The notes under the pieces were generated by a model, which was not told the DNA's origin, did not search any database, and worked only from the letters and a program-made list of their open reading frames with translations. From a virus (Duplodnaviria; Caudoviricetes): DNA of 64,000 nt. Positions within the stretch are counted from its first letter, which is position 1. Each line of letters starts with the position of its first letter. Location: positions 1,797-65,796 of IMG/VR virus record IMGVR_UViG_3300012953_000026. One strand, written 5' to 3'. Made by a program: the position numbers and the translations under genes. This document shows, piece after piece, positions 2,031 through 57,500 of the stretch.

Positions 2031-2309
2031 CTAAATCATCGATTCTTCTTCTAAATACGAAGCAACACATTCTTGGAACCTTGGATCACTAGCCACTTTC
2101 GCGATGTCTGCATCAGACATATCATATAGCTCGCATACCCCAACTGCCAATTTTTTCATGGCTTCTAGCAGAATGTTCCTAGCAGCGGAATGCCTCATCT
2201 TGTATCCGCGGTTCGTCATTTCTTCCGCGATGTCTTTATAACTCATTCCACCAGTCTTGACCACGGTCGCGTAACCGTTTGTAGATTTATAACCTTTTGG
2301 CATACTCAT
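2031..2309 (-). CDS. HTH protein resembling sigma-70 region 4.2 (candidate second half of a split sigma factor)
   Basis: MSYKDIAEEM...HSAARNILLEAMKKL aligns by eye with sigma-70 4.2 (YTLEEVGKQF..TRERIRQIEAKALRKL). ATGA overlap with the sigma gene and an AGGAGG SD 8 nt upstream. Confidence 0.6.
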   Translation of the reverse strand: MSMPKGYKSTNGYATVVKTGGMSYKDIAEEMTNRGYKMRHSAARNILLEAMKKLAVGVCELYDMSDADIAKVASDPRFQECVASYLEEESMI

Positions 2310-3073
2310 TTAGCAATCCTCCTAATCTCTTTTACTTCATCTCTGCTTAACGTAAATCGACCTTCTGGCTCATCAGCAGATTCACCGATACCAAAGCGAA
2401 GACGAATAATATTTTCTTCACGGCTAGTAAGACTCTTAAGAGCGTTTCTCATCACGCCTTTGATCTTAACAGAGTCTAGTAAGTCTTCAACAGAGGCAGC
2501 TTGATTATCAGGTACAACCTCTGATATCTTTCTGCCCGCACCACCTGAGCGGTCTCTAATACTTGCGTCCAGAGACGTTTGAGTAGAACATTTTATCATT
2601 GACATCAGGGTACTCGTAGGAATACCAAGAGCTTCAGACACCTCATCGTAAGATGGACGCTGGCCAAACTCTTCTTCATACTCCTTGATCATCACATTCA
2701 TCTTCCAGAGAAGATTCCTTGTGTGAGCCGGGAGCTTGATATCAGAAGCCTGACTAGCTACATGAGTCCGAACAGATTGCTTTATCCACCAATAAGCGTA
2801 CGTACTGAATTTAAAGCCCTTACGCCAATCAAACCGATCAACTGCCTTGATCAACCCCATGTTAGATTCTTGGATCAGATCCTCTAAAGAGCAACCCTTA
2901 CTCTGGTATTTCTTTGCTATTGATATAGCCAGCCTAAGATTAGATTGGATCATCTTATTTTTAGCTCTAGAATCGCCGGCCTCAATTTTTTTAGCCAAAT
3001 CAATTTCTTCTTGCCGAGTAAGAAGTGGATACTTGCCCACCTTTGTAAAGTATGTTTGCAATGCTTCTGACAT
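2306..3073 (-). CDS. RNA polymerase sigma-70 family factor (regions 1.2-4.1; lacks 4.2 HTH)
   Basis: LQTYFTKVGKYPLLTRQEE (1.2), SNLRLAISIAKKY, DLIQESNMGLIKAVDRFD..KGFKFSTYAYWWIKQ (2), RPSYDEVSEALG (3), LTSREENIIRLRFGI (4.1). Confidence 0.9.
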   Translation of the reverse strand: MSEALQTYFTKVGKYPLLTRQEEIDLAKKIEAGDSRAKNKMIQSNLRLAISIAKKYQSKGCSLEDLIQESNMGLIKAVDRFDWRKGFKFSTYAYWWIKQSVRTHVASQASDIKLPAHTRNLLWKMNVMIKEYEEEFGQRPSYDEVSEALGIPTSTLMSMIKCSTQTSLDASIRDRSGGAGRKISEVVPDNQAASVEDLLDSVKIKGVMRNALKSLTSREENIIRLRFGIGESADEPEGRFTLSRDEVKEIRRIAK

Positions 3074-3122: not shown

Positions 3123-3442
3123 TACTTTCTCAAAAAATTATCGTGAGATCTCCTTCTTCTTGACCGCTGATCTGTCTCTCTTTGAATATAACAAATTTCT
3201 TTCTCAATCAACCTAGACGACTTTTCATCTTTCTTAGTTCGAGCTAAGCGTAAGTTTTTATTTAAACGATCATTGAGATACCTGATCTCATCGTCGCTCT
3301 TATGCGCTAACTCATCAACATTGACATTGATAATGATCACAGGATCATTCTTCCTGTCTTTCCTATCTGTCTTAGACTCTCGCCGATTAGTGTTTCGCGG
3401 TTGTCTTGCTGTCTTACTTCTCATCGTTAACCTCACGTTCAT
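3122..3442 (-). CDS. hypothetical basic protein (106 aa)
   Basis: Packed ORF, Arg/Lys-rich. Confidence 0.55.
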   Translation of the reverse strand: MNVRLTMRSKTARQPRNTNRRESKTDRKDRKNDPVIIINVNVDELAHKSDDEIRYLNDRLNKNLRLARTKKDEKSSRLIEKEICYIQRETDQRSRRRRSHDNFLRK

Positions 3443-5003
3443 TTATAACTGCGGCGCAACCAACAGACAGCAGATTTAAAGCAGCGCTGGTTGCATTTTC
3501 TAAAGCTGATACTGAAACTTTCACTGGATCAATAATCCCTTCTTTCATTACATTCGTGATCTTTCCGGTGCTGGCGTCATAGCCAGTCGTGTCCTTCACA
3601 TTCTTCAACTTCTCTAAAATCACCTCAGGCACATCGCCTGCATTTCTTGATATCTGGTACACGGGCATCTTCAAGGCATGCGATAAGATCTGAAAACCAG
3701 GCTCGGGGCGGTCGTTGAGCTTCTCAGAAACCCTGAGTAGTGCTGCACCCCCTCCGGGAATTATCCCATCCTCTAAAGCAACCCTAGTCGCATTTACAGC
3801 GTCATCAACCCTGTCTCTTCTTTCGTTAACTTCACTCTCTGTTGAACCGCCGACATAGATAACAGCGACGCCGCTGGTCATACGCTTACGCCTGCGATCT
3901 AGAACACTTCTTTCGTCAGCAGAGACGTTAGGTTCTTCGGCACGTAATTCAATGGCTGAAATTCTTTGCTTTACTATATCGGCATCGGAATGACAATCTA
4001 CGAATACGCTCTTGTCTTTGTAGGCCTTAAAGGTCTTGCAGCTACCTGTCATCTTAAAAATTGGCATAGTCGGCCACTCATCTGGGTTATCATGAATCAA
4101 TGTAGCTCCCAAGACAGCAGCTAAATCCTCAAGTGCTTGCTCTCTAGCAACCCCGAACTCAGGTGGTCTCAACACGCAGCATTGTAGATTACCTTTCGAT
4201 TTGTTAAGAATCAGGCCCTGAAGTGCTTCACCAGCCACATCATTCGCCATAATGACTAAAGGCTTACTCTCGCGAACAGACTCCTCTAGAATCGTCATAA
4301 TGCTCTTCAAGCTAGTTATCGTCTGATTTGTGAGAAGTATTAACGGGTTCTTAAACTCAACAGTCTGCTTTGATTGATTCGTCACAAAATAAGGAGAAAT
4401 GTAGCCCCTATCGATCTGGTATCCGTCCACCAGAACCAACTCAGTATTGTAACCCTTAGAGTTCTCTACTGTAACATACCCATGTGATCCAACTTTTCCA
4501 ACAGCTTCAGAAATTATTTCACCCAGAAACTCTTCGCCGTTAGCAGAGATGGTAGCAACATTCTTCAGATCTTTCTCGTTCCTGATATCGATGGCTGTTT
4601 CTCTTAGAGCTGTAATTGCAGTATCCTTTGCCTCTAAAAGAGATTCACGTAAGTCTCGGATATTACCTCCGGTGCTCAGGTACTTGCTACCTTGCTCAAA
4701 AATAGCTTGAGCAAGAACAGTTGACGTTGTTGTACCATCGCCGGCGACCTCCGCAGTTTGACGAGCTGCTTCTTTAACAACTTGAGCACCTAGATTTTCA
4801 AACCTATCCACCAAGTTAATAGCCTCAGCAACAGTGACACCATCCTTGGTTAGGATCGGTGGACGCTCATCGACCTCTATCAAGACGTTCTGTCCTCTTG
4901 GACCCATAGTAATCTTGACCGCATCCGACAATTTCTGGACACCAGCCAGTAGAGAGGACCTAAGTTCATCCGAGTATCTTAAAATTCTTTTTTGCATCAT
5001 CAC
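3414..5003 (-). CDS. groEL: chaperonin GroEL (phage-encoded)
   Basis: TMGPRGQNV, TKDGVTVA, AGDGTTTSTVLA, RVDDAVNATR, IPGGGAAL and GIIDPVKV; no GGM tail. Confidence 0.95.
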   Translation of the reverse strand: MMMQKRILRYSDELRSSLLAGVQKLSDAVKITMGPRGQNVLIEVDERPPILTKDGVTVAEAINLVDRFENLGAQVVKEAARQTAEVAGDGTTTSTVLAQAIFEQGSKYLSTGGNIRDLRESLLEAKDTAITALRETAIDIRNEKDLKNVATISANGEEFLGEIISEAVGKVGSHGYVTVENSKGYNTELVLVDGYQIDRGYISPYFVTNQSKQTVEFKNPLILLTNQTITSLKSIMTILEESVRESKPLVIMANDVAGEALQGLILNKSKGNLQCCVLRPPEFGVAREQALEDLAAVLGATLIHDNPDEWPTMPIFKMTGSCKTFKAYKDKSVFVDCHSDADIVKQRISAIELRAEEPNVSADERSVLDRRRKRMTSGVAVIYVGGSTESEVNERRDRVDDAVNATRVALEDGIIPGGGAALLRVSEKLNDRPEPGFQILSHALKMPVYQISRNAGDVPEVILEKLKNVKDTTGYDASTGKITNVMKEGIIDPVKVSVSALENATSAALNLLSVGCAAVINEREVNDEK

Positions 5004-13681: not shown

Positions 13682-14280
13682 CCGCCACCGCCGTCGCCAC
13701 CGCCGGCGCCAACTGCGATCGGAGTCGGTAACTCCCTCTGAGCCTGTTCTTTCTCATGGTCATCGCGAGGATCAACGTGGAATCTCGTCTTCATGATTTC
13801 TAAAAAGCTAGACTCTGCATCTTCATCGTACTTGGAGAGTAGATAGTCTCTAGCCTTAGCCATGATGATTTCTTCGATGTCTAAAAGAACGTCGGCATTC
13901 TTTATAATCCTAGCTGTCTCTGCAGCAAATTTCTCTATATCAAGATCTGGAGCCTCGGACTCATTCAATAAAGCTGCGCGTAGTGAATAGGATTCTTCTT
14001 GTTTTTGGACAGCCGCGCTCTTTAAGGCGTCTGTTTCGATATCAACAAAAAGAGCAGTCAAAGAATCATCGAGGCTCTTGCTTAGCTCAATCTCCTCGTC
14101 TTTAGAGACCTTGACATCTTCATCGGAATCTTCTTCACTTTCTTCCTCAGCACCCTCTTCTTCAGTGCCTTCTTCTTCAGTGCCTTCTTCTTCGTCGTCC
14201 TCAGCTTCTGCTAACATACGACTACTCTTCTTTAGACCAGCTGCAAGCTCTAAGAACTCTTTGATATCGTCTCTATTCAT
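13678..14280 (-). CDS. acidic hypothetical protein (200 aa), possible virion-internal/scaffold protein
   Basis: EEEGT repeats; LLNE motif. Confidence 0.65.
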   Translation of the reverse strand: MNRDDIKEFLELAAGLKKSSRMLAEAEDDEEEGTEEEGTEEEGAEEESEEDSDEDVKVSKDEEIELSKSLDDSLTALFVDIETDALKSAAVQKQEESYSLRAALLNESEAPDLDIEKFAAETARIIKNADVLLDIEEIIMAKARDYLLSKYDEDAESSFLEIMKTRFHVDPRDDHEKEQAQRELPTPIAVGAGGGDGGGG

Positions 14281-14966
14281 TTCACTTTTCCTTGTCCTGC
14301 CTTCGACATCGATTCAACTTTCTTAACTCGCTCCTCGATCCTTGACCACCTGAGTTCTTTCATCATAGCAAAAATGAACGATCTTTTGTCTCTTAGGTAA
14401 TCCCTAAAATATGCATGCTCGCAACAATCAATAACAATGATTGGGAACGAACCTATCGGGATACCTTTATCGTGAGAATCAATCACAACATTCATGTATC
14501 GATTTAAAAAGAAGTTGTAAACAGTAACGACCCACCCATGCCTGGAGCTTAAAGCGCACGCAATAAAGTCTTTTTGCCAAGCGTCAAATGAACCAAAGTC
14601 TCTCTCTAAACGCATAAAAGCAATAGAATCCATATTAATAACGGAATTTTGATCGCTAATATTCTCAAAGTAGTAAGCGTGTAGAAAAGATGCATTAAGA
14701 TTATAAACTTCGTCCTGCTTTAAAGAGCGAATTTTAGAATTATTGTTATGAGCTAGTTCTCTCTCAGCAGTGTCCAGGAAAGCAGAGACTTCATTTAATT
14801 TCTTAACATGATCTTCTAAAATCTCTTGATGACTATTCTTCGTCTTCTCGCTTAAGAGCTCTGTCGATAACTCATATTTCTTAGCCTGTGTAACATAGGC
14901 TTCGTCTAAATTATCACCGAGAGATTTCTTGATTTCTGATACAATTTCTTTCTTTAGATCTTTCAT
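14277..14966 (-). CDS. Fe/Mn superoxide dismutase family protein with N-terminal extension
   Basis: All four metal ligands appear present: H (NSHQ), H (NASFLHAYYFENI), and D and H (IDCCEHAY, canonical DxWEHAY); also RDFGSFDAW and GWVV. Confidence 0.8.
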   Translation of the reverse strand: MKDLKKEIVSEIKKSLGDNLDEAYVTQAKKYELSTELLSEKTKNSHQEILEDHVKKLNEVSAFLDTAERELAHNNNSKIRSLKQDEVYNLNASFLHAYYFENISDQNSVINMDSIAFMRLERDFGSFDAWQKDFIACALSSRHGWVVTVYNFFLNRYMNVVIDSHDKGIPIGSFPIIVIDCCEHAYFRDYLRDKRSFIFAMMKELRWSRIEERVKKVESMSKAGQGKVK

Positions 14967-15331
14967 TAATCAACCTCGTAATTTTTTTCAAACTCGTCTT
15001 TGTCAACTGAGAATTCTGAGTCTTCTGAATCTGGTACTGGAATTAACTCTTCTTCTTGACCAGCAATAACATGCTGCTGAGAAGGTGAAGCTTTTACGCG
15101 GGGTGCATCTGGGGTCCTTAGGGTAATATTGACATTACCCTTGTCGTCTGCGACTTTTTTTATCGTATATTCGAAGCCAGAACTTTTATGACGTACTTTT
15201 AAATCAGGCTCTAAGACAACTCTGCCCTTTTTGTCTGTCACGGCTGTCTCCCTAAGTAGGGAAACTGTCTTGAGTCTGTCTTCGTATTCTTTTAACAAAA
15301 GAGCCTTTAAAAAAGCTTCAGGTTTATTCAT
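14966..15331 (-). CDS. hypothetical protein, possible virion-internal protein
   Basis: LKALLLKE and LLRE motifs. Probable start ATG 15331; the track starts at 15346. Confidence 0.6.
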   Translation of the reverse strand: MNKPEAFLKALLLKEYEDRLKTVSLLRETAVTDKKGRVVLEPDLKVRHKSSGFEYTIKKVADDKGNVNITLRTPDAPRVKASPSQQHVIAGQEEELIPVPDSEDSEFSVDKDEFEKNYEVD

Positions 15332-15764
15332 GTTGCACCCCATCACTAAATAAGTATTTTCGACACTTTATTCCTGCTCCCTCTAAAATGCGTAAACCGG
15401 TTTCATCGCGATAGCTATCCAAATAAACCAGTTCAGATATGTCAGCATTGACTATAGCTTTGGCACACATCCTACAGGGGCTAAGTGTTAAATACATCAC
15501 TTTTTTCTTTGGGTTATTATAGTCCATCTTCAGCAAACAGTTTATTTCTGCGTGAATAAAACCTGATTGACCCGGATCTTCGGACTCAACTTCGTTGGGG
15601 CCGCCGGCGTAGTTTCCGTTATACCCAACAGATAATACTTGAGTGTTATCGGATGTCACCACTATCGCCCCAACTTGGTAACGAGGATCGTAGGACCTTC
15701 TAGAAATCTCTCTTGCGACGTTTGCCCAAACGCTATCCCAGGACGGTCTGTGATTATTTCCCAT
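15324..15764 (-). CDS. dCMP deaminase family protein
   Basis: VGAIVV, GYNG, HAEINCL and SPCRMCAKAI zinc motif. Confidence 0.88.
   Translation of the reverse strand: MGNNHRPSWDSVWANVAREISRRSYDPRYQVGAIVVTSDNTQVLSVGYNGNYAGGPNEVESEDPGQSGFIHAEINCLLKMDYNNPKKKVMYLTLSPCRMCAKAIVNADISELVYLDSYRDETGLRILEGAGIKCRKYLFSDGVQHE
15351..15357 (-). promoter_or_regulatory. ATANTTA motif (candidate late promoter)
   Basis: ATACTTA upstream of the 15331/15346 start. Confidence 0.3.
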
Positions 15765-18083: not shown

Positions 18084-18492
18084 CTTTATCCCTCTGTCCA
18101 GTTATACTAAAATGCCCGTCATTCAACACACAAAAATCTGAGTTTCCAGACGAACTGATTTCATAAATATTACAGTCTGTCAAAGCTTTCAAGGTGTAAG
18201 GACACCCCGATTGTATCTGTAATACGTCACCCCTAACCAAAACCTTTCTAGAAACCAACTGAACATCTTTACTCTTTAAATAAGACTCTGGGGCGAAAAC
18301 CGCCTCAAGCCGTCCTTCTTCGACAAAGAATGTTTCGTTTTTGTTGGTGAAATACTTGGCTCTCGTGGAGTATCCTCTTTTGATAAAAATCTTCTTACCG
18401 AATATCTGTTGGTTTACAAAGTCCCAGCGAACCTCATGCCCCCAGTTCTTTTCAATACTTTCAGATTTTAAAACCCAAGAGCTTTTATTCAT
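18076..18492 (-). CDS. cupin-fold protein (sugar isomerase-like, metal ligands degenerate)
   Basis: EKNWGHE, KKIFIKRG, KNETFFVEEG and GDVLQI..G.PYTLKA; the His ligands are absent. Probable start ATG 18492. Confidence 0.6.
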   Translation of the reverse strand: MNKSSWVLKSESIEKNWGHEVRWDFVNQQIFGKKIFIKRGYSTRAKYFTNKNETFFVEEGRLEAVFAPESYLKSKDVQLVSRKVLVRGDVLQIQSGCPYTLKALTDCNIYEISSSGNSDFCVLNDGHFSITGQRDKDG

Positions 18493-19084
18493 GACCCCCC
18501 CTAGGATCAAAATGACTGTGGCACCTAGGCTGGTATAATTCGGAACCCCCAATCTCGAGCTTTCCAGGATCGTTATTACCTGCTACCTTCTGGGTAAAAT
18601 AAGCGTCCTCTCCACAGACCGAACATACTGCAGGACAGATATGAACGCCAGTAGCCCAAGGTAGCAATTCTTGCAACTCGTCGTATGGATCACCAGAAGA
18701 TGATAACTGAAGACTGGAAACAAGAACTGTTTTACCACGGTTGTATATCTTCTTCAGGGCCGCGGCCGCGCCAGGAATCATAAAAGCCTCATCGACAGCA
18801 ACAACATCTAAATCGTGACCTGAATTACATGCATTGAATCTTTGCAGGAGTTCCTTACCGGTGGATATTCTCTCGACCCGACTAAACCCTACAGCTCTAG
18901 ACGACAAACTTAGCCCGCTATGCGTGACAATGGAGTCTCTATCATAACGCTCGTCTATTTTGGGCTTGAATAGCAAGATGCTCTTGTTTTGATACTGGTA
19001 TCGATCTAAGGCGGCAATCAATCGAGTTGTCTTTCCGCCGAACATAGGACCAGTAAAAATCTCGAAACGGGGATTCCTGTTCAT
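18485..19084 (-). CDS. tdk: thymidine kinase
   Basis: GPMFGGKTT, LLFKPKIDERY, VDEAFM and lasso Zn motifs CSVCG...RCHSH. Probable start ATG 19084. Confidence 0.9.
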   Translation of the reverse strand: MNRNPRFEIFTGPMFGGKTTRLIAALDRYQYQNKSILLFKPKIDERYDRDSIVTHSGLSLSSRAVGFSRVERISTGKELLQRFNACNSGHDLDVVAVDEAFMIPGAAAALKKIYNRGKTVLVSSLQLSSSGDPYDELQELLPWATGVHICPAVCSVCGEDAYFTQKVAGNNDPGKLEIGGSELYQPRCHSHFDPRGGHE

Positions 19085-20088
19085 TATGAGTTTTCTTTCA
19101 ATCCCCACCACTCAATTGTCTTATTTAACCCGGAAATAAAATCCCACTCAGGCTGGAAACCTAGATCTTCTGCAATCTTCGTCATGTCAGCTTTCGTATG
19201 CTTCACATCTCCGGGTCGAGCAGGTGCATTCACGATCTCTAAATCACCGAACCTCGCCTTTAACATATTCAGTATTTCATTATTGCTAAAGGTTTCTCCA
19301 GTCCCTACGTTATAGGCATCACCTGACATCACACCCGGGGCTTGGGCAGCTGCGATATTCGCACCGACCACATCATCGATGTAAACAATATCTCTAGTCT
19401 GCTCACCATCCCCATCACTTCTCAGCGATTGGTCTGTGGCAATCTTGTCAAGCCACGCGGAGACTGCGGTAGAGTACGGGCTGTCACCCGGCTGGCCAGG
19501 TCCGAAAACGTTAAAGTAGCGCAAGCAGACTGACTGTAAATCATACAGCTTAAAAAACAACCGGCAGAAATTTTCAACGACAAGCTTCTGTAAGGCGTAC
19601 GGAGAGGCTGGCTCTAAAGACCCGGACTCTTTTGAAGGAAAATTGTCAGGCACGTCTCCATAAACTGAAGAGGAGGAACTAAACACTAACCTATCTATGT
19701 TCGAGACGCATGCTGTCATCAAAGAGACAGTCTTCATTACATTCTGGTCTGTTGTCAAAACTGGGTTTTCAACAGAAAACTGCACTCTGGGTAATGCTGC
19801 AAGGTGAAAGACATAGTCATATTTTTTATCTGCAATTCTTGACAGTACGTAGGGACTGGCAAAATCGCCAGTAATGACCAGCGCCTTGTCTTCCACAATT
19901 CCTGACTCTTCATATTGCAAAAGAAGCTCAGGAGTAACAGTCCTGATGTCTATTGCATCTAAAGCAGCGATATCTCCGCTCGAAAGATCATCGACAACCT
20001 CAACATCCCAACCTTTTTTGATCAAGGCAACTGCAAGATTTGAGCCAATAAATCCGCAGCCACCAGTAACTAAAGCTCTCTTTTTCAT
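19084..20088 (-). CDS. NAD-dependent NDP-sugar epimerase/dehydratase (GalE/WbpP-like extended SDR)
   Basis: TGGCGFIGS, HLAA, FSSSSSVYG, SPYALQK (YxxxK), LRYFNVFGP and RDIVYIDDV. Confidence 0.9.
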   Translation of the reverse strand: MKKRALVTGGCGFIGSNLAVALIKKGWDVEVVDDLSSGDIAALDAIDIRTVTPELLLQYEESGIVEDKALVITGDFASPYVLSRIADKKYDYVFHLAALPRVQFSVENPVLTTDQNVMKTVSLMTACVSNIDRLVFSSSSSVYGDVPDNFPSKESGSLEPASPYALQKLVVENFCRLFFKLYDLQSVCLRYFNVFGPGQPGDSPYSTAVSAWLDKIATDQSLRSDGDGEQTRDIVYIDDVVGANIAAAQAPGVMSGDAYNVGTGETFSNNEILNMLKARFGDLEIVNAPARPGDVKHTKADMTKIAEDLGFQPEWDFISGLNKTIEWWGLKENS

Positions 20089-20089
20089 T

Positions 20090-20611
20090 TTAATCAACTC
20101 CTAAAAAACACTTAATTTCTGAAACTTGCTTTTCTAAATTCATATCAGAAGTTTCCAGAAACAAAACATCACAATTTGTTTTGCCCAAAAACATTCTATA
20201 CCGTTCTTCAATTTTTTTTAAAGTTTTATCGTTTATTTCGTCTGGAAACAAGTCATCCTGTACGCCCTCGTAGCTCTTCTTGTAGCAGAATATTAACTTT
20301 CCATCAATAGAAGAAAACTTTTCATCGAGTCTTGATATCAGGTCTTCATTGGTTTCACGACCAAATATTGCAGAATATGCATACTCACAAGGGTAGAACC
20401 TATCAAGAATTGCAGTTGGCCTCACTTGCACCAAAAAATCCATGAGAAAAGTGCCACCAAATTTGAGCAGGTTTAAATAGTAATCATCACCGCTCAAATC
20501 TGCTTTCCACTCCCCAGTATTTTTAAAAACAGGTATACCTAGGTCTTTCGATAGCTGACCAGCTATATTAGACTTTCCTGTCATGTCAGGACCGATGAAA
20601 GCTAAAATCAT
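20090..20611 (-). CDS. deoxynucleoside monophosphate kinase (thymidylate-kinase-like)
   Basis: P-loop GPDMTGKS and LDRF motif. Confidence 0.75.
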   Translation of the reverse strand: MILAFIGPDMTGKSNIAGQLSKDLGIPVFKNTGEWKADLSGDDYYLNLLKFGGTFLMDFLVQVRPTAILDRFYPCEYAYSAIFGRETNEDLISRLDEKFSSIDGKLIFCYKKSYEGVQDDLFPDEINDKTLKKIEERYRMFLGKTNCDVLFLETSDMNLEKQVSEIKCFLGVD

Positions 20612-20615
20612 TACC

Positions 20616-21659
20616 CTACCCGCAAAGATGTTCCAGAAGGTCTACCCGAGACTCTGGACGGGGATCAATTACTGTCCGCAAAGCCTCTTCTTGCAGATTC
20701 ACCAAACCCAAGCGGTCTTCAGCTGATAGTGTGGATAACCACTTCGTCTTATTAACAACATCCTCTGTGGACCTCACGATTAGGGACTCGTCTTTTAAGC
20801 CAACAGGACGAGCGTGCTCATATTCCCATGGAATCAGTGCAGGTACCCCGCTCTTTATCGCTTCGAAAAAGCGGCCCGTAATGTTCCCGAAAGGAGTATA
20901 GTCATCCTTTGTGATATGAGTTACAGTAATAGAGGAATTCAAGACAGAAAAGATATCCTTGTACGCCAAGCGTGGGCCGAATGCGACGTTTGGCGCGTTA
21001 ATGATCCTAACAGCTGGATCTTCTCTTTCCGGAGACCTAGCTAGCCAATTACCACAAACGTACGTTTGGATCCCTTGCTCCCTGAGGGGCGTGCTCGGAT
21101 CTACGTAGTATTTCTTAAACTGGTTTTCTCTCTCGTAATTGTTTCCGACGTACGTGTAATTGTAAGAATACTCGACTGGAGAGAAGTAGCGATGCATGTA
21201 GTTGCACCAGGGGATTGAAATTCTTTTTCTAGTCAACATTCGAGGATTCACACACGCATCGGAAATTACTGCGTTAGGCCAGCGTTGCTCTTCTTCAGCG
21301 GTCATTTTAAGATCACCGTCATGAATGATGATGGGTACTCCGGCTGCGTGATAGTGATCTAAAACTTCACATTGTCTTGTATAGTCTGACTCTTGAGAAT
21401 TGCTGCCAGAATTTTTCCACGTTGGCCAGCGCCACTCACAATACACGATATCACCTTCTGGAAAACCAACTGGGTGATACTCAACGCCCGGGAACTGCTC
21501 TTCATCTCGCATCTTCTGCAATTGAATCACAGTGTGGTCTCTTCCTTGAAGTTCTCTTACAAAGTCAACTCGATTTCCTCGCTCGCCATCAGGTGTATTC
21601 ACCATAGAATTTTTCTCTAAAGGAGTAATGAAACCCCAGAAACTGTAAAGTACCCTCAT
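20616..21659 (-). CDS. GT-B glycosyltransferase, T4 DNA beta-glucosyltransferase-like
   Basis: C-terminal domain YTYVGNNYERE...ITKDDY..GNITGRFFEAIKSGVPALI parallels T4 BGT (VIYGGSFRSGQRE...IGDKNYNDNFITLRVWETMAS) from my recollection; same size (about 350 aa). The track start is 21671. Confidence 0.7.
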   Translation of the reverse strand: MRVLYSFWGFITPLEKNSMVNTPDGERGNRVDFVRELQGRDHTVIQLQKMRDEEQFPGVEYHPVGFPEGDIVYCEWRWPTWKNSGSNSQESDYTRQCEVLDHYHAAGVPIIIHDGDLKMTAEEEQRWPNAVISDACVNPRMLTRKRISIPWCNYMHRYFSPVEYSYNYTYVGNNYERENQFKKYYVDPSTPLREQGIQTYVCGNWLARSPEREDPAVRIINAPNVAFGPRLAYKDIFSVLNSSITVTHITKDDYTPFGNITGRFFEAIKSGVPALIPWEYEHARPVGLKDESLIVRSTEDVVNKTKWLSTLSAEDRLGLVNLQEEALRTVIDPRPESRVDLLEHLCG

Positions 21660-21660
21660 A

Positions 21661-22770
21661 TTATTCTCCATCCTTTTTTAATTCTTTCTTTACCTTATAC
21701 AAGGCCGAACCTATTACTTGGTGCATATCATAATATCGATATTCTGCCAATCTACCTCCAAATATTATATCACTATTTTTCGCAAGAACAGAATACTTCT
21801 TGAACATGTCGCTGTTTTTCTTATCGTTGACTGGGTAATATGGGACCTTACTCGGCGTCCAGTCTTGCGGATATTCTTTCGTTATAACTGTCTTTTTGAT
21901 GCTAGGTGCATCCTGCGGTTGGAAATGCTTGTGTTCTACAATCCTTGTATACGGGACTTCGTAATCCGTATAGTTTACAACAGCGTTACCCTGGTAATCC
22001 CCATCGTAGACTTCGTGTTCGAACCGTAGAGATCTATATTCAAGATACCCATGCTCGTAGCCAAAAAACTCGTCAATCTTACCAGTGAAAACAGTCTTAT
22101 CAGCCAGAGAGTCCCACTTCTCTCTATCTTCTAAATAATCGATACCCAGTTGGACCTCTGCTCCTTCTAGCATTTTAGAGATCATTCCGGTGTAACCATC
22201 GACTGGAATCCCTTGGTATTTATCAAAGAAGTAATTCTCTTCAAAGATCATTCTAATCGGTAAGCGTTTTATGATTGAGGCTGGTAGCTCACTTGGGTGA
22301 CGCTTCCACTGCTTCATAGTGTACCCCTTGATGAACGTCTCGTAGACCTCTCGACCCACTTGTGACAAAATCCACTCTTCTAAATTTTGCGGATTCTCAC
22401 AAGGAATTCTGACCTCTTGAAGCTTTGCCTCAGCTTCGGCCGGGGTTGTCACTCCCCACAGCTGGTGAAGAGTCATTAGATTAATAGGGAAAGAATATAT
22501 ATTACCGCGAAAATTCACCTTAGGCTTATTGATATATTGATTGAACTCGGTGAACCGGTTTACAAAATCCCAAATCTTTTCATTGTTTGTGTGAAATATA
22601 TGCGGACCATAAACATGGACGTCGACACCGTCTCGCTTTTCGGTATAGCAGTTTCCACCGATGTGGTCTCGCTTATCTAAAACAAGAACAGACTTACCGC
22701 TGTCCATCATCTCCCTTGCGAAAGTAGCACCGAACATACCGGCACCCACTATCAAATAATCATACTTCAT
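21661..22770 (-). CDS. glf: UDP-galactopyranose mutase
   Basis: IVGAGMFGA (FAD), HIGGNCY, HVYGPHIFHT, KGYTMKQW, YTRIVEHKHF, YYPVN and GRLAEYRYYDMHQVI. Confidence 0.95.
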   Translation of the reverse strand: MKYDYLIVGAGMFGATFAREMMDSGKSVLVLDKRDHIGGNCYTEKRDGVDVHVYGPHIFHTNNEKIWDFVNRFTEFNQYINKPKVNFRGNIYSFPINLMTLHQLWGVTTPAEAEAKLQEVRIPCENPQNLEEWILSQVGREVYETFIKGYTMKQWKRHPSELPASIIKRLPIRMIFEENYFFDKYQGIPVDGYTGMISKMLEGAEVQLGIDYLEDREKWDSLADKTVFTGKIDEFFGYEHGYLEYRSLRFEHEVYDGDYQGNAVVNYTDYEVPYTRIVEHKHFQPQDAPSIKKTVITKEYPQDWTPSKVPYYPVNDKKNSDMFKKYSVLAKNSDIIFGGRLAEYRYYDMHQVIGSALYKVKKELKKDGE

Positions 22771-23785
22771 TTCTTCTCCTTAAATCAACTTCATAACCAG
22801 AATAGTCAAAATCTATATTTTCTAAAACCCGCTTGCCAAAACCTAGCTTCTTCGCCCTGTGGTAAGCCAGCAGGCTGGCAAAATCTGTCCAAACGTTTTT
22901 ATCGCCATTTGAATACAGCTCTTGCAATAACGTTACTAATTCACTCTCTGTGCTGGATGACCTGACGTCTTTCTCAAATGTCAAGATCTTCTGTAACCAT
23001 CTCTCTTTCCCACCGTTTAGAAAGTCATCAGGTGCAAAGTTAGGCATCTCCCCGTTATGAACTGAACCCATGGCTGACTCATGCTCTCCACGGTCTGTTA
23101 GGATCACCCTGCACATCTTAAAGTGTCTCTCATAAATGTGCAGAGAATTACTACAGTGTGTATAGGTCCCTAACTCGACCCCAAGCTCTAGAGCAAGCAT
23201 CTCTTGAAAAAAAGTAAAAGCTGGAATATCGTAAGCAATTCCAAAAATAAGATCAGAACTTCTCATATTAACGATCATGTGAAGTTGAGCATCTCTTATA
23301 AAGAACTGAAGACTTAGTGTACAGGGCACATCTAGCTTTGCATCGACACTATCATCAGGAGTTCTTAAATGAATGATCGCTCTTCTTGAATCTGGATCCC
23401 TTGTTAACTCATCTTTTACAAAATCCCACTGATTCAACCTTCCACCGGCGATGATAGGATTTGTATGAAATATCCTAGCCCCATAAGCGGAATTAGCAGT
23501 CTTACCGTCATCACTGATATTTGACCAGAACTTTGAATAATTTGATATCCATTCTGTAGAATTGTTACCAGACAAATACCAGACCATCTCAGCCGCAAGG
23601 TACGTCGGGCTAAAGTTTCTACCCCACACAAAAGGGTACCTGTGTCGAGGGTTGTCTATTGTAAAAGACACTCCTAGTTTTTCTCTTATCTTCTGACCTC
23701 GAGGAGAGGACTCGTACTCATAATCGTTGTAGACCTCCCTAATTAGTGCGAGGTAACAGTCGGTGAAGTTCTTAAATTTTCTCAT
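22760..23785 (-). CDS. thymidylate-synthase-fold enzyme, probably dCMP-specific (dCMP hydroxymethylase-like)
   Basis: SRRAII, catalytic VPCT, MRSSDLIFGIAYD and SLHIYERH. Asp occupies the position of ThyA Asn177. Confidence 0.8.
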   Translation of the reverse strand: MRKFKNFTDCYLALIREVYNDYEYESSPRGQKIREKLGVSFTIDNPRHRYPFVWGRNFSPTYLAAEMVWYLSGNNSTEWISNYSKFWSNISDDGKTANSAYGARIFHTNPIIAGGRLNQWDFVKDELTRDPDSRRAIIHLRTPDDSVDAKLDVPCTLSLQFFIRDAQLHMIVNMRSSDLIFGIAYDIPAFTFFQEMLALELGVELGTYTHCSNSLHIYERHFKMCRVILTDRGEHESAMGSVHNGEMPNFAPDDFLNGGKERWLQKILTFEKDVRSSSTESELVTLLQELYSNGDKNVWTDFASLLAYHRAKKLGFGKRVLENIDFDYSGYEVDLRRRNEV

Positions 23786-27477: not shown

Positions 27478-27852
27478 TTAGGGTTTAATTTCAGACAATC
27501 TATCAGTTATTATCTTGTGTTTGCGAGTGTAGGCTTCAAAAAATTCTTCTGAATCTACACCTGTCAAAACCAGTATTGCCAAGAAATAATTAAAAGCGTC
27601 TATCATTTCCTCCAGGTATTCCTGCCTGTCGAATTCTTTCTTAGAAGCCCTGTGATCTTTCCAGTTCTTCAGGTGTAGCAGCGCCTCAAAAAGCTCTTCA
27701 ACACTTCTAAACGTTATTTCTCGCAAGACCTTTTGGGAAGCCTTATCCTCCAGGTTTACTGGCCACTCCGGATACGCTCCTCCGACTTTCTCAGAGATTG
27801 TTCGCATAAAATCTTGCCTGAGCGCAAAAAGTAAATCTAATCTATCATCCAT
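27478..27852 (-). CDS. all-alpha NTP pyrophosphohydrolase (dUTPase/dCTPase/MazG-like)
   Basis: EELFEALLHLKNWKDH...EEMIDAFNYF acidic metal motif (EExxE...ExxD). Confidence 0.75.
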   Translation of the reverse strand: MDDRLDLLFALRQDFMRTISEKVGGAYPEWPVNLEDKASQKVLREITFRSVEELFEALLHLKNWKDHRASKKEFDRQEYLEEMIDAFNYFLAILVLTGVDSEEFFEAYTRKHKIITDRLSEIKP

Positions 27853-28876: not shown

Positions 28877-29683
28877 TCACCCCTGAATTTCTGGTACCCA
28901 ATGAGTCGTTCGACCATCAGGTGTTTTTTCTTTTTTTACGGTATTACCGTCTGGATCATTTTTCTGATTATATACTAAGAAACGAGAACTGTAATTGCCA
29001 ATTTCACCATAAAAATCTCGATAAGAGTTAATGGTTGCACCGCCTGTCTGAAAGGATTCTCTCATAACAGACTTTATCGACTTGTTGAGCATTTTTAAAT
29101 TAGAGTCAGAAAGATCGCTAACTTTCTTGAACGGGCTTATTCTGGCAAGATACAGAGCTTCTGCTTTTACGTAGTTACCCACTCCAGCAACAACTGATTG
29201 ATCCATTAAAGCCTTTGTGATATTTACATCATCTTTTTTTCTTATCGAAGAAAGAAACAAGTCGTTGCTAACATCTTCAGCCAGCATATCCGGGCCGAAT
29301 GAGGCGAGCTTTGAAGAGAGCTGTTTTGGATCAAAAGAGAATTTAATTGTTCCAAAGTTGCGCATATCGTTGAAGTAGACAGTCTTACCGTTGTTAAACT
29401 TCAGCGACACCCGTGTGTGTTGAGTTGATTCTTTTTGCCAAGCCCCAGTCATGCCTAGGGTTGACCACATACTGCTCTTATCCTGGAATATGAAATATAT
29501 GAATTTACCATGAACGCCTACACCCTGAACCTGAAGCGGAAGTCTTTGCTTTAGTGTGTCTAAGCCCGGAAGCTCTTTTTTCAAATATCTCCCTGACACT
29601 ATCTCTATTTCCTGTAAAACATCTCCGCCGACGCTCTCTCCCAAGAACATTGCATATCTTCTACACTCTGGACCTTCAGGCAT
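28877..29683 (-). CDS. Fpg/Nei family DNA glycosylase/AP lyase with zincless finger
   Basis: N-terminal PEGPE, HGKF, LGMTG, FNDMRNFG, H2TH ALMDQSVVAGVGNYVKAEAL, C-terminal GRTTHWVPEIQ with no Cys. Confidence 0.9.
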   Translation of the reverse strand: MPEGPECRRYAMFLGESVGGDVLQEIEIVSGRYLKKELPGLDTLKQRLPLQVQGVGVHGKFIYFIFQDKSSMWSTLGMTGAWQKESTQHTRVSLKFNNGKTVYFNDMRNFGTIKFSFDPKQLSSKLASFGPDMLAEDVSNDLFLSSIRKKDDVNITKALMDQSVVAGVGNYVKAEALYLARISPFKKVSDLSDSNLKMLNKSIKSVMRESFQTGGATINSYRDFYGEIGNYSSRFLVYNQKNDPDGNTVKKEKTPDGRTTHWVPEIQG

Positions 29684-30116
29684 TTTGGCACCCTCCGTAG
29701 TTGTCTAGTAAAAAACTGTGGTAATCTACCAGAGCATGATCATTAGGCTCTAGTAACCGCCACTCTCCTTTTATGAAAATGTTATACGCATCGTCAGCGT
29801 ATTTTCCACACCCATAAAGCTCCTTGGCATCCGACCATTCTTCGCCGAGGTACTCTTCGCAAAACCTCTTTAAGATCTTTACTCTTCTGTTTACGAGACC
29901 TAGAGAACAAAGCTCTTCTCGTAATCTATCTTCAGGCGCAGAAATAAGAGAGATCGGATCAGGGTATTGAGAAAAAAAATCTTGTATCATCGGCTCGACT
30001 TGCTTTCTAGAAGTTTGGTTCAATAATAAGCAAGTGACAAGGATCTTCCAACCATCTGGCCAGAACCTCTCCTGGAGCAGGTCATAAGGTGATTTAGGGG
30101 GTATCCACTCATTCAT
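29676..30116 (-). CDS. MBD4-like G:T/G:U mismatch DNA glycosylase (stand-alone HhH catalytic domain)
   Basis: WIPPKSPYDLLQE...WKILVTCLLLNQTS...LGL...GCGKYADDAY.IF..GEW...PNDHAL..Y matches the MBD4 glycosylase domain pattern; the catalytic Asp position is retained. Confidence 0.85.
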   Translation of the reverse strand: MNEWIPPKSPYDLLQERFWPDGWKILVTCLLLNQTSRKQVEPMIQDFFSQYPDPISLISAPEDRLREELCSLGLVNRRVKILKRFCEEYLGEEWSDAKELYGCGKYADDAYNIFIKGEWRLLEPNDHALVDYHSFLLDNYGGCQNA

Positions 30117-30718: not shown

Positions 30719-31321
30719 TTATTCTAGCTCGATGTCTACAGAAACTTCGATAGTTATTTTCGGAACGCGAAGTTGATTTACCATCCCGTGCTTCTTTGCT
30801 TCTTCTGCATCAAGAAACCAATCAGCGTGTTTTTTCTTATCGACAATCTTCATAAAATAATCATCTTTTTTTCCACAATTTCTCGCCATCATAGTGTAGA
30901 TTGTAGTGTTCAAACGATCAGCTTCTTTCGCGCCGGCTTTCAGTTCCTCGACTTTTCCAAAGTCCATACTTGAAACGTCATGAATCATGATGGTTGCGTG
31001 AGGATCCATAAACCTAAGGCCTTCTTCACCAAAAGAAAACAGAACAGCACCGCAGCTCATGGCTTTTCCTTCTACTATGGTCGCGATAGGTAACTCTGAA
31101 TGCTTTATCGCAGAAATCATAGACATGAGGCTATAGACCTGGCCGCCATAAGAGTCAATAACAACGGGTATCACTTTCTGGCCAGTGTTGTGAGCCCTTG
31201 CGATTTCTTGATCAAATTTCTTAGCTGCATCTTCATCAAATTTATTGACTCTCACAATCACTGGATTGTGTCGCATTTCCACTTCTTTTATTAAAGGTGA
31301 TACCTTTGTCGTCCACTTCAT
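30719..31321 (-). CDS. clpP: ClpP-family serine protease subunit
   Basis: IDSYGG, catalytic Ser (AMSCGA), His (IMIHD) and Asp (DWFLDAEEA). Confidence 0.85.
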   Translation of the reverse strand: MKWTTKVSPLIKEVEMRHNPVIVRVNKFDEDAAKKFDQEIARAHNTGQKVIPVVIDSYGGQVYSLMSMISAIKHSELPIATIVEGKAMSCGAVLFSFGEEGLRFMDPHATIMIHDVSSMDFGKVEELKAGAKEADRLNTTIYTMMARNCGKKDDYFMKIVDKKKHADWFLDAEEAKKHGMVNQLRVPKITIEVSVDIELE

Positions 31322-39367: not shown

Positions 39368-39868
39368 TTACCAGCTTTTCCTTTCTCCAGAATAAATCAC
39401 GACTCCACCACCGAGATTCTCGACTTGTATCAAAGAATCGAGACTCAACATTCCTGCATTTTGAGCGCCTATCATCGTGTGATATATGTATTTTATACCG
39501 TCACGTACGTTTATCGCAGAAACTTCCACCTTAAGACCCACCATTGATCCCTTTGTAACCTGTGACAGTCCGGTGTACACTTTTTGCATCGCGTCAGTGC
39601 CTGTGAAAGCCTGCTTTAAAATAGACTTGATCTTATCAATGTCGTCCCCACCACCGCCACCTGAGATTCTTAGGTTCTTCATCAGCTTTTGTGGATTTTC
39701 ACTAGCAAGAGCTCCTGCTTCGTTAACCCCAGCAGAAAAACGACCAGAGCCTGTCGAGGCTTCTATCCCAGTTTTCTTCTTTTTCTTCTTTTTCTTCTTT
39801 GGCTTCTTTTCTTCTTCATTCTCTTCCTTAAGAATGTCTAAAACCACATCTTTAACACTTACTTTCAT
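39368..39868 (-). CDS. hypothetical protein (166 aa) with poly-Lys tract
   Basis: VLDILKE motif; KKPKKKKKKKK. Confidence 0.6.
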   Translation of the reverse strand: MKVSVKDVVLDILKEENEEEKKPKKKKKKKKKTGIEASTGSGRFSAGVNEAGALASENPQKLMKNLRISGGGGGDDIDKIKSILKQAFTGTDAMQKVYTGLSQVTKGSMVGLKVEVSAINVRDGIKYIYHTMIGAQNAGMLSLDSLIQVENLGGGVVIYSGERKSW

Positions 39869-41031
39869 AACACGTCGTACTCCAAGAAAAAATGACCTAC
39901 GTCTTTAATGTCTATTCCTTCATTAATTATTTTGTTGAGTTGCGGGATGTCATCATTTCTGACATCTAGGACCAGCGCATCATGTATTACGCACAATGGC
40001 TTTACTGATGGTGGCATACGAAAATCCTTCATTAGGTTAGAGAATCCTATCAAAGATACATCAACGCTAGAACTTTGTACAAAGTTATTGACAGCCACGT
40101 TAGAGCTACACTTTTTAAGAGAAATCGGTCGACCAAAATAGTTTTTGATGTTTCCACTCTTATAGTCACCTGCCGCCTGTAGAATCTTTCCTAAACTGAA
40201 ATACTCATCTATGGCTTTCTTTATCAGCATCGCTTCTTTACCAACAATCTCTGTCAGCTTAGTTAAACCGGCGCCGAAAAGAGTCGATAAAACTGCAGCC
40301 TTCACTTTGTCTCTACCACATTCCAGCTTGTACTCATCCATAACATCGGTATAGATATCTCTCTCTGTCGAATCAGAGGTCAGAAGTTTTGCGAATCTAG
40401 GCTCTAGGGAAACAAAATCAACCCAGACTATGCTACCATTCTCATACCTGCTCTTAAAAATATTCTTCATGCTTCTAGGCAAAAGTAAAACCTGAGGTCC
40501 TGATCCAACGACTAAACGACCAGTGACTGTTTTCATCCTGTTATATGTTAACTCTCTAGAAAAACCGTCGGCGGCAGGAGCAAACGAACTTACTATTTTT
40601 CTGATTGTTGGGTTCTCTATTTCTAAACCTAGTACTTCTTGATTGGGAACTATCCTGCTGAAGTTTTGAAGAATGTAGTTTCCCTCAGAATATACGCTGG
40701 GATAGCCGTCTGAATCAAAAAAAGCAGACAGCTCCTTTATAGAGGCAAACAAGTTGCTTATCTTACCGGCATAAATCTCACGAGGTAAAGAGAACTTCCA
40801 ATTGGGATTCTTGGCCCCAACTTCTAACAGCGATTTTCTATACTTTTCCTCAATAAAGACTATCGGATCTATCCCGTATAGACCATTAAACAAATTTAGA
40901 GAATTTTCTTCTTCACAACTTAAGAAAAGATCATGATCGGTTTGAGCTGAGTTTACCCATGCGCAATCGCTGCCATGGACTAAAAGATGGCTATCACCGC
41001 CGAATATAGATCGATCAATTAAAATCTTCAT
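39865..41031 (-). CDS. minimal family A DNA polymerase (polymerase domain only)
   Basis: TVTGRL, motif A DFVSLEPR, motif B RDKVKAAVLSTLFG, NNFVQSS and motif C IHDAL. Confidence 0.75.
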   Translation of the reverse strand: MKILIDRSIFGGDSHLLVHGSDCAWVNSAQTDHDLFLSCEEENSLNLFNGLYGIDPIVFIEEKYRKSLLEVGAKNPNWKFSLPREIYAGKISNLFASIKELSAFFDSDGYPSVYSEGNYILQNFSRIVPNQEVLGLEIENPTIRKIVSSFAPAADGFSRELTYNRMKTVTGRLVVGSGPQVLLLPRSMKNIFKSRYENGSIVWVDFVSLEPRFAKLLTSDSTERDIYTDVMDEYKLECGRDKVKAAVLSTLFGAGLTKLTEIVGKEAMLIKKAIDEYFSLGKILQAAGDYKSGNIKNYFGRPISLKKCSSNVAVNNFVQSSSVDVSLIGFSNLMKDFRMPPSVKPLCVIHDALVLDVRNDDIPQLNKIINEGIDIKDVGHFFLEYDVL

Positions 41032-54559: not shown

Positions 54560-57500
54560 TTAGATTTCTGCACCTGCATTTGTAATAACAAAGTCAAGTG
54601 AAATAAATTCAACAGAACGTGTTGGCTGTAAGAATATCTTTCCACGTAGTGTGTTGTTCTCCACGTCCGTCTGTGTTGTTGTAGTCGTGTCTATCTTCAC
54701 AAGGAATCTATCAACACCCTGCTGCTGTTGAATCTGTCGTAAAATCGGATTCACTCTAGCAGAGAACCTTGCGAGAGTCGCCTCTCTGTTCGGTTCGAAG
54801 ATGAAACTGTTCGCCACTCTTCTAACTCTTCTACGTAGTTCGATAAGCAATCTACGTACGTTAACTCTATCGAGCGAGCTCTGTGTTCTAAGCAGTGTCT
54901 TTTGGCCGAATACCACAACTCCCTCAGTGTGTGGGAATGACGTAATCGGGTTAATATCAACATCATATAGAGAATCCAGATTATCGCGATTAAGCTTCAC
55001 TTGAGTCTCAGCCACGTTGGCCATAGCGCCTCGTGTAAAGCCCGCTGGTGCAAACCATGGGTGTGCCAACTGGTCATTAAGGGAGAAGGCTCCCAGGACC
55101 GGTACAGATGGCGGAACCTGGATGTTTTGACCTGTCGATGGGTCGCTTAAAATCACATCAGGAAAATAGGCAGCTGCAAAGCTCGTATCTAAGACTCTGT
55201 TATTGAATCTCTGAACTGTATTTGTAACACTAACTTTCTGCATTGAGCCTGTAACCACTGTGTTCTCAGTATCATACACGATCGCGTCCATGATATACAT
55301 GGCGTCGAATCTTTCTTCGACAGCATCGATCGCTCTATCAGTTACCAGCGACTGCCTGATGCCTGGAATTGCAAGAAGCTGGATATCTACATCGCTTCTT
55401 TCAGCCAGCACATCAATCGCCCTCATGTATGTCGCGGCGGTTGCACCGTCCTTACCACCCTGCTTTTCAGAATCGCTAACTTCTCTCATTACGGCAACAT
55501 CAGAAAGAGCGGCTTTTTCTTTATCGAAAATTTCTACTCCGTCGAATCCACCAGCGACGTGAACATTGTACTTAAGGTACCGTCTAACTGATCCTAAGTC
55601 CAAGTCTCCTTGCGCGTTCAAGAATCTTGTCCTAAGACCAGCAGAGTTACCATCTACATCTTTGATGCTCAGGTCTAAAACGGCGTTTCTTCGGTAAGAA
55701 GCTGCAGCCCACTCTGCGGAGTCTGGATTACCAGAGCTTGCAGTTAAGACCTGGATATTCTCCAGGGTAAACTTGTTGTTATTGTAAGAGTCGGCAGCAG
55801 CCGAGCCTTTCCTTGCGGATACCAAAGACAGCGAGTCTTGATCAAAGTCTGGGAAGTATTTTGTCCAAGACCTAGATGAACCCACCAGCTTGCTATTCTT
55901 GTTTGGTTCAACTGAATAATCATCAGCCTCAAACTGGACACCCCAGTTCAGAGCCGAAACCACTCTCTTCTTTGGCGTTACCCCAACAGCCAGTGATCTT
56001 CGCATTGGAAGAGGCGGAGCAATCACTGACTGAACAGCTACGTTAGATGAGTCTAATAAAGCTGCGCCAGCAGTATCTACAACAGTAGGAGCATGCAGCG
56101 CCTGGGCATTATCGATATTCAACTTCTGTGGACCTCTAAAGCCAAACGGCAGAGCCGTTGGATCGGTAATGCCGGTCTCAACATCAGCTTCTACCTCAAC
56201 CCTAATATAATTCGAGTTGTTAGCAAATTTCCCAGAAAGAGTCAGCTTTTGTCCACCGGCTCGTTTATCGAAATCGTAGAACAATCTTTGATCACCGATG
56301 ATTCTAGAAATAAATCTTTCAGAATTTGGATCCAGATTTAGGCTGGAGTATCGTTCCAGAACAACTGGCTCACGGTCGTTATCATCGAACTTTCTTACAA
56401 GAAGATCAAAGGTACCATAGCGATTTTTGTCTGATTGTGATCTTCTTAAATTCTCAATCGTTAATTTGTAAACGCTGTTCCCACCCGCACCGTCATCTAG
56501 TGAGTGAACCCTAAAGAGCGGTTGGTTAACTCCACCAAACTTCTGTGATATAAAAGTTGGGGAGACCGCGGTACGAAATCTGTCAGAAAAAGATTCAGCA
56601 TTCGCTCTATCAGCTTTACCAGTGTTTCTTTCTGCCTTGGTCGGTAGAAGAAAAGCGATGTCTGTACCTGCTTGACCTGCAGTGGTCAAGTATGGGTTAG
56701 CAGTGCCGACTGGGGTTGCGTATGTACTAAACACGTCGTAATTAACATGTAAGTAGTGGCCCGCTGTCTGGATTGCTTGAGGATCAGTATTGAATACATT
56801 CGGAAAATAATTGGATGACTGTGGATCAAATGACGCAGTCAGAGCGCTTGGATAAGCAGCTGTTGGTTTATGACCATTCAAGATCATAATAAATTCTTGC
56901 TTGCCATCCGAAGTCGTTACATTACCCAAATGAGACCCGCCGTTATCGACGCCTTGAACACTTGGTGTAATACCCATAGACGCAGTGACGGAACTCGCTG
57001 CCATTTGGAGCACCGAATCAGATCCTCCAGTAAAGACAGTTGGAATCTCTGCTTCGGAGCGTACTACGTCTGTAGCAATAACTCGGTTTCCGGCGGCGCC
57101 TGGAGCAACCATACCTAGAGTGACCGAGTCGCCTTGAGCAATAGCCCTAATTGTTCCGAACTTGCCACCGTGACCGCCATTACTGTTAATCATCTTAGCA
57201 AGACTTGCCGCCGTTGAAGCAGCTGTACCTCCTCTCGCGAAGGTGAGAGTGCCATCGTCGGTGGCGTCTTCGGCGTCTGCGGTGTCGTAGTTGATCACGT
57301 TTGTGCCATCTGTCAATGTAATTCTTTTGCCGGTGGTGGTTGTGGCGGTGAGAAACTTAATTACCGCGGTGGCGGTACCCTTCAATCCAGCTTTACCAAC
57401 CGGTGCGTTGTTTATTGCCGCCCGGGCAGATGATAGAGCCGGTACGACACCGGATGGATACATAAGGACACCACGAAGAACGTTGGCATACTTGTCACCA

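Follow-up and report, generated by a model that had tools for sequence, protein, structure and literature searches.

The stretch of DNA analysed here (the window) comprises 64,000 nucleotides (nt), positions 1,797 to 65,796 of the IMG/VR record IMGVR_UViG_3300012953_000026, a viral contig of 65.8 kb that is approximately 21% complete by CheckV. The window, which covers part of a giant myovirus genome, carries genes for a tail sheath, a baseplate and a tail tube, together with DNA polymerase III (Pol III) alpha, DnaB, RecA, a gp32-like protein, a ribonucleotide reductase, a sigma-70 factor, a GroEL-like chaperonin and a peptide deformylase. On its minus strand lies a gene of the thymidylate synthase (TS) fold, which is the first in a co-directional run of genes that overlap or nearly abut, being followed by genes for a UDP-galactopyranose mutase (Glf), a GT-B glycosyltransferase (GT), a P-loop kinase and a short-chain dehydrogenase/reductase (SDR), as shown in Table 1. 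An earlier note on this DNA, made from its letters, had argued that the TS homologue acts on deoxycytidine monophosphate (dCMP) instead of deoxyuridine monophosphate (dUMP). Our analysis of its sequence and modelled fold suggests that the gene most probably encodes a folate-dependent dCMP 5-hydroxymethylase (EC 2.1.2.8 type) with the architecture of MilA.

The TS-fold protein matched the Pfam TS family (PF00303) with an E-value of 1.9e-32, which is far beyond chance, but it fell below the cut-off of every NCBIfam thymidylate-synthase equivalog, with a best score of 92.6 bits against 327. In sequence, the solved protein that it matched best was MilA (E 5e-46), against 2e-20 for ThyA and 1.7e-17 for T4 gp42. 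An AlphaFold2 (AF2) model of the protein, built with 46 homologues, reached a mean predicted local distance difference test (pLDDT) score of 90.1 and aligned with MilA at a Z of 34.2 and a root-mean-square deviation (rmsd) of 2.7 (304/316 residues aligned, model range 1-340), while the next structural matches, the dCMP hydroxylase AfhB (22.7) and ThyA (~21.8), were more than 11 Z units lower. The catalytic cysteine and the general-base glutamate of the TS fold are both present, as C155 (C146 in ThyA) and E66 (E58 in ThyA). Since the alignment with MilA spans the C-terminus, the C-terminal helical domain of ~100 residues is the MilA one, a domain that is missing from T4 gp42 and ThyA (PMC5175136), and in the model alignment the TS-fold protein matches the MilA/BcmA architecture of a TS core followed by a C-terminal five-helix domain.

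The active-site residues were read from an alignment with E. coli ThyA, T4 gp42, RB69 gp48, RL38J1_216, SPO1 gp29, canonical phage ThyA and homologues from cultured phages, and those of MilA from a HMMER alignment. The ORF is open over all 341 codons and reads N-M-R-S-S-D-L-I-F-G-I-A-Y-D, which contains, from the first Arg onwards, the motif that the earlier note had reported; Asp186 stands 11 residues past Arg175 and the catalytic Cys155 is intact in D-V-P-C-T, with the codon coordinates of both proving exact. The motifs that it had set beside this one also agreed with the fetched sequences, namely R166-SCDVFLGLPF-N177 in E. coli ThyA and R168-SNDVVFGFRN-D179 in T4 gp42. In E. coli numbering, the signature of the window protein is E58 W80 Y94 R126 R127 D143 C146 T147 M165 R166 S167 S168 D169 G173 D177 H207 Y209, and 16 of these 17 positions are the same as in T4 gp42, the sole exception being 168, which is Ser in the window protein and Asn in T4.

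The substrate is addressed by the triad D177/T147/M165, which is the same as in T4 gp42, whereas ThyA has N/H/Q and the SPO1 dUMP hydroxymethylase N/N/N at these positions. N177D shifts the substrate from dUMP to dCMP (PMC13326640), and the TS homologues of cytosine-modified and unmodified contigs are best separated by positions 177 and 147 (PMC8670742). At position 143, a bulky residue excludes water and Asp or Glu goes with hydroxymethyl products (PMC13326640); the window protein has an acidic D143 together with a retained D169. The preference of MilA for cytidine monophosphate (CMP) comes from A176 and K133, and the double mutant A176S/K133R reverses it to dCMP (PMC5175136); unlike MilA, the window protein has the deoxyribose-type Ser167 and Arg126. 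Taken in combination, these rules point to dCMP as the substrate and to a 5-hydroxymethyl product, and they argue against methyl, hydroxy and ribonucleotide readings, with the panel of positions 143, 147, 165, 167, 169 and 177 separating the hydroxymethylase, hydroxylase, methylase and ThyA readings from one another. The argument of the earlier note from the Asn177-to-Asp change thus appears to be sound, as further residues and the gene context agree with it.

The signature is strongly conserved. Among the nearest database homologues (52-87% identity) it was invariant in 119/119 apart from one S168T, and it was kept in 80/80 related IMG/VR loci, with position 168 being S or N only and with a few changes at the phosphate-binding positions 126 and 127; Asp at 177 was retained in every one of both sets. 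The maximum-likelihood tree (IQ-TREE, LG+C20) was constructed from 25 sequences, with MilA, BcmA and Xp12 left out. It split canonical ThyA from all modifying homologues with supports of 100/100 and placed the 5-hydroxycytosine (5hoC) synthases RB69 gp48 and RL38J1_216 in a clade of their own (100/99), outside of which the window protein was located, inside a metagenomic clade (85/89).

Several observations weigh against the assignment as a dCMP 5-hydroxymethylase. The residue rules are correlative, and the characterised enzymes behind them are limited in number. The loop that carries Asp152 (residues 148-153) has a pLDDT below 50 in the model, so the loop geometry is without support. MilA, the closest solved structure, prefers CMP. 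The window protein was not placed with T4 gp42 in the tree, the deep nodes of which are without resolution and in which the T4 gp42 branch is very long; the phylogeny that the earlier note had proposed as a check therefore set the protein apart from the ThyA clade but gave no resolved link to T4 gp42. Finally, neither a ThyX nor a second TS gene is present in the record of the window, which is an incomplete fragment.

Four other functions were weighed. A flavin-dependent 5-hydroxy-dCMP synthase of the RB69 gp48 or HY126 AfhB type, with 5hoC as the sugar acceptor, would share much with the window protein, as the known synthases (RB69 gp48, DLP3 gp80, RL38J1_216 and HY126 AfhB; PMC13326640) are likewise phage-encoded, of the TS fold and cytosine-specific through D177, have T147 and M165 in common with it and start a glycosyl-cytosine pathway. 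AfhB is also the second-best structural match, and the 5hoC maker Rhizobium phage RL38J1 has a similar kinase-GT-TS order and a phage Glf. However, D169N is the mark of these flavin-dependent enzymes, and 5hoC was obtained from every tested D169N homologue (PMC13326640); the TS of RL38J1 is of this hydroxylase type. The proven synthases have A80, V173 and N169, together with Q168, and use flavin and O2, whereas the window protein has W80, G173 and D169 and is excluded from the clade of RB69 gp48 and RL38J1_216. We consider this function very unlikely. A dCMP methyltransferase of the Xp12 type, yielding 5-methyl-dCMP, is improbable to a similar degree: although N177D by itself, according to a citation in PMC8670742, makes ThyA methylate dCMP, position 143 of the window protein is Asp and not a bulky hydrophobic residue, a comparison made by the residue rule and not with the Xp12 sequence, and a methyl group gives the co-transcribed glycosyltransferase no acceptor. 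Among the three products that the earlier note had proposed, 5-hydroxymethyl-dCMP is accordingly favoured, while D143, D169, W80 and G173 argue against 5-methyl-dCMP and 5-hydroxy-dCMP.

A ribonucleotide (CMP) hydroxymethylase like MilA or BcmA, which would make a nucleoside metabolite or a modified RNA precursor, draws its strength from MilA being by far the closest solved structure, both in sequence and in a fold that includes the C-terminal domain. MilA is the CMP 5-hydroxymethylase of mildiomycin biosynthesis in Streptomyces rimofaciens (PDB 5jnh, 5b6d, 5b6e and 5jp9), is 32-33% identical to the window protein and has D at 143, 169 and 177 as the window protein does. Nevertheless, where MilA owes its ribose preference to A176 and K133, the window protein has Ser and Arg, the pair that switches MilA over to dCMP, and the role of MilA is in antibiotic biosynthesis, whereas the TS-fold gene sits in a block of phage DNA-replication and deoxynucleotide-metabolism genes, so that we regard a ribonucleotide substrate as highly improbable. 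An ordinary thymidylate synthase or a dUMP hydroxymethylase is extremely unlikely, for although the Pfam TS model is passed and the homologues are annotated as thymidylate synthase by their sources, the protein has D177, T147 and M165 in place of the N, H/N and Q/N of uracil-specific enzymes, failed all the NCBIfam equivalog cut-offs, lies apart from the ThyA clade and has relatives that carry ThyX. The SPO1 gp29 type of dUMP hydroxymethylase, which combines N177 with an acidic 143, was rejected on N147, N165 and N177 against T, M and D in the window protein. The warning of the earlier note that an automated thyA label would probably be wrong is therefore well founded.

The supply of deoxythymidine monophosphate (dTMP) bears on the preferred hydroxymethylase function. 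The earlier note had assigned it to a nearby thymidine kinase and dCMP deaminase, both of which are real, plus a host or unseen ThyA or ThyX. A contig with an 88%-identical TS gene and complete synteny over 14 genes encodes a ThyX (E 5.7e-51) ~42 kb beyond the TS gene, a distance that puts the equivalent site past the end of the window contig. ThyX was found in six of seven large related contigs, among them this syntenic one and both of those that are at least 90% complete, and each of these large contigs contains exactly one PF00303 gene, which is of the Asp type. The phage of the window thus very likely has a ThyX, judging from these relatives, and the TS-fold gene would not be needed for dTMP; the suggestion of an unseen enzyme is in this way upheld by the relatives, while the record of the window itself is without ThyX.

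Table 1. Coordinates and supporting evidence for the TS-fold gene, its diagnostic codons and the genes around it, in positions of the window.
Feature	Position	Strand	Evidence
TS-fold gene, 341 amino acids (aa), predicted deoxycytidylate 5-hydroxymethylase with MilA-like C-terminal helical domain (~residues 230-341)	22760..23785	-	PF00303, MilA E 5e-46, AF2 model
Arg134 codon (= ThyA R126, MilA K133; deoxyribose-type)	23384..23386	-	alignment
Asp152 codon (= ThyA L143; acidic residue correlating with hydroxymethyl, not methyl, products)	23330..23332	-	alignment, PMC13326640 rule
Cys155 codon TGT (= ThyA C146, catalytic nucleophile)	23321..23323	-	codon read, alignment
Ser176 codon (= ThyA S167, MilA A176; deoxyribose-type)	23258..23260	-	alignment
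Asp178 codon (= ThyA D169; 5-hydroxy-dCMP synthase signature D169N absent)	23252..23254	-	alignment
Asp186 codon GAT (= ThyA N177, T4 gp42 D179; cytosine specificity)	23228..23230	-	codon read, alignment
UDP-galactopyranose mutase (Glf), start overlapping TS stop by 11 nt	21661..22770	-	TIGR00031 387 bits vs cut-off 303.75; PF03275 6.8e-76
GT-B glycosyltransferase, 351 aa, candidate DNA glycosyltransferase	20616..21671	-	AF2 fold, pLDDT 93.7
Small P-loop deoxynucleoside/deoxynucleoside monophosphate kinase-like protein, 173 aa, candidate 5-hydroxymethyl-dCMP kinase (T4 gp1 role)	20090..20611	-	family profile
Extended-SDR nucleoside diphosphate-sugar epimerase/dehydratase (GalE/TviC-like)	19084..20097	-	PF01370 9.3e-51; GalE 160 bits, below cut-off
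Thymidine kinase	18485..19111	-	PF00265 1.3e-35
dCMP deaminase, would supply dUMP to ThyX	15324..15764	-	PF00383 1.9e-19
MazG/PRA-PH-like all-alpha nucleoside triphosphate (NTP) pyrophosphatase, candidate dCTPase (T4 gp56 role)	27478..27852	-	PF01503 E 9.5e-6, above cut-off

The model of the GT ranked T4 beta-glucosyltransferase (BGT) first (Z 23.0, rmsd 3.7, 306 residues aligned), but BshA, PimA and the T4 alpha-glucosyltransferase came within one Z unit of it, in effect a tie. A tblastn search of 50,697 phage records with the GT sequence found nothing, the PDB contained no sequence match, and BLASTP showed no similarity to either T4 BGT or the GT of phage ATCCB, so the transferase is identified by fold alone; a search of BFVD returned generic phage GT-B matches. 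The family profile of the small P-loop protein, when compared with the PDB, matched SPbeta YorR (6.6e-6) and deoxyguanosine kinase (1.6e-4), with AAA_28 and thymidylate kinase as further leads. The MazG-like gene is located upstream of the TS-fold gene, past Pol III alpha, and PF01503 has been found together with TS on cytosine-modified contigs (PMC8670742); the protein is a candidate dCTPase.

A megablast search with 8.4 kb around the TS-fold gene returned no match in the phage collection, and the gene contexts of relatives were taken from the 80 related IMG/VR loci. At a distance of up to 10 kb from the TS gene, these loci contain an SDR gene (64), a deaminase gene (61), Pol III alpha (59) and a kinase gene (55), as well as the GT family of the window (42), a MazG-like gene (31) and Glf (21). 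These counts indicate a conserved core of hydroxymethylase, kinase and SDR with a variable transferase and mutase, and the sugar-related genes of the pathway seem to be exchanged from one lineage to another. One relative, L005, has a 430-aa protein without any Pfam match at the place of the GT. Pol III alpha is a continuous ORF of 1201 aa in the window, whereas in the 51%-identical relatives L004 and L005 (1-6003) it was recovered in three tblastn pieces with gaps of ~2.9 kb and ~1.3 kb, a pattern suggestive of inteins or of mobile-element insertions.

The overlap of Glf with the TS-fold gene makes galactofuranose on the hydroxymethyl group a natural prediction, and it is possibly the sugar used, though this concerns the operon as a whole and not the TS gene alone. 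We tentatively put forward, as a conceivable outcome, a novel hypermodification, galactofuranosyl-5-hydroxymethylcytosine (galactofuranosyl-5hmC) DNA, in which the sugar would come from Glf and the SDR and be attached by a GT-B family that is without a sequence match in the phage collection. In the literature searched, phage Glf is linked solely to 5-hydroxycytosine, in RL38J1. Near the nucleotide-modification block, an Fpg/Nei-type glycosylase gene (28877-29683, minus strand) overlaps a small HhH-GPD glycosylase gene (29676-30116, minus strand), so that base-excision glycosylase genes sit in a phage whose cytosine is probably modified.

Among characterised systems, T4 gp42 (PDB 1b49, 1b5e and 6a9a) shares the TS fold and the 16 positions mentioned above, including D143, T147, M165, S167, D169 and D177, and the pathway roles predicted around the window gene are those of T4, namely NTPase, kinase, DNA glycosyltransferase and dCMP deaminase. 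However, T4 gp42 is only ~30% identical over 208 residues and, at 246 aa, lacks the C-terminal helical domain. The TS homologues of the cultured phages VPE25, ATCCB and G are 34-40% identical to the window protein and carry its signature except at 168 and, in gp319 of phage G, also at 127, and a DNA glycosyltransferase gene adjoins the TS homologue in each. In Enterococcus phage VPE25, whose cytosines were experimentally shown to be modified (PMC4999554), the homologue (~40% identity) lies beside a beta-glucosyltransferase gene. Bacillus phage G has a glucosyltransferase, a kinase, a deaminase and the TS gp319 together. Lactobacillus phage ATCCB (MK504445.1, 5828-9392) has a small ORF, the TS homologue, a 'beta-glucosyltransferase' and a UDP-galactopyranose mutase adjacent to one another, and this cultured phage is a ready experimental system for the galactofuranosyl-5hmC question. 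The TS homologues of VPE25 and ATCCB have C-termini shorter than that of the window protein, and the glycosyltransferases of both phages are T4 BGT-like by annotation, with no detectable sequence similarity to the window GT.

Other features of the window were also observed. Two tail-sheath paralogues of giant size, 1446 and 1095 aa long, are encoded side by side (54560-58900 and 58925-62212, minus strand); each has a C-terminal Phage_sheath_1C domain, and their lengths are far beyond those of usual sheath proteins. Five further phage-encoded genes on the minus strand (917-1561, 2306-3073, 3414-5003, 14277-14966 and 30719-31321) have as products a peptide deformylase, a sigma-70 factor, a GroEL-like chaperonin, a protein with an Fe/Mn superoxide dismutase C-terminal domain, and ClpP. 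The window, which also encodes Pol III alpha, contains a 388-aa ORF (39865-41031, minus strand) that weakly matches family-A DNA polymerase, with an E-value of 1.3e-8 that lies at the Pfam cut-off.

For the predicted dCMP 5-hydroxymethylase, we infer the substrate, the product and all downstream steps from sequence, fold and context. Cys155 would attack C6 of dCMP, methylene-tetrahydrofolate would give its methylene to C5, and Asp186 would read the N3/N4 face of the cytosine. Water let in by Asp152 would then trap the exocyclic methylene, which would otherwise be reduced, to give 5-hydroxymethyl-dCMP. This nucleotide may be phosphorylated by the adjacent small kinase, incorporated as 5-hydroxymethyl-dCTP by the Pol III-type replicase of the phage and, as 5hmC in DNA, glycosylated by the neighbouring GT-B transferase, while a separate route through ThyX, with the dCMP deaminase and the thymidine kinase feeding it, would provide dTMP.

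That giant phages use specialised TS-superfamily enzymes to make 5hmC is already recognised (PMC7824862), and the MilA-shaped architecture found here would tie phage dCMP hydroxymethylases to an enzyme of an antibiotic pathway. A thyA label on this gene would misreport both the thymidylate supply of the phage, which would run through ThyX, and the chemistry of its DNA, as the predicted 5-hydroxymethyl-dCMP would be the first step to a sugar-coated cytosine in phage DNA. If the assignment is true, the uncultured giant phages of this widespread group would carry 5hmC derivatives in place of cytosine, and such a replacement would affect the sensitivity of these phages to restriction, CRISPR and type IV systems, as well as the behaviour of their DNA in sequencing and cloning.

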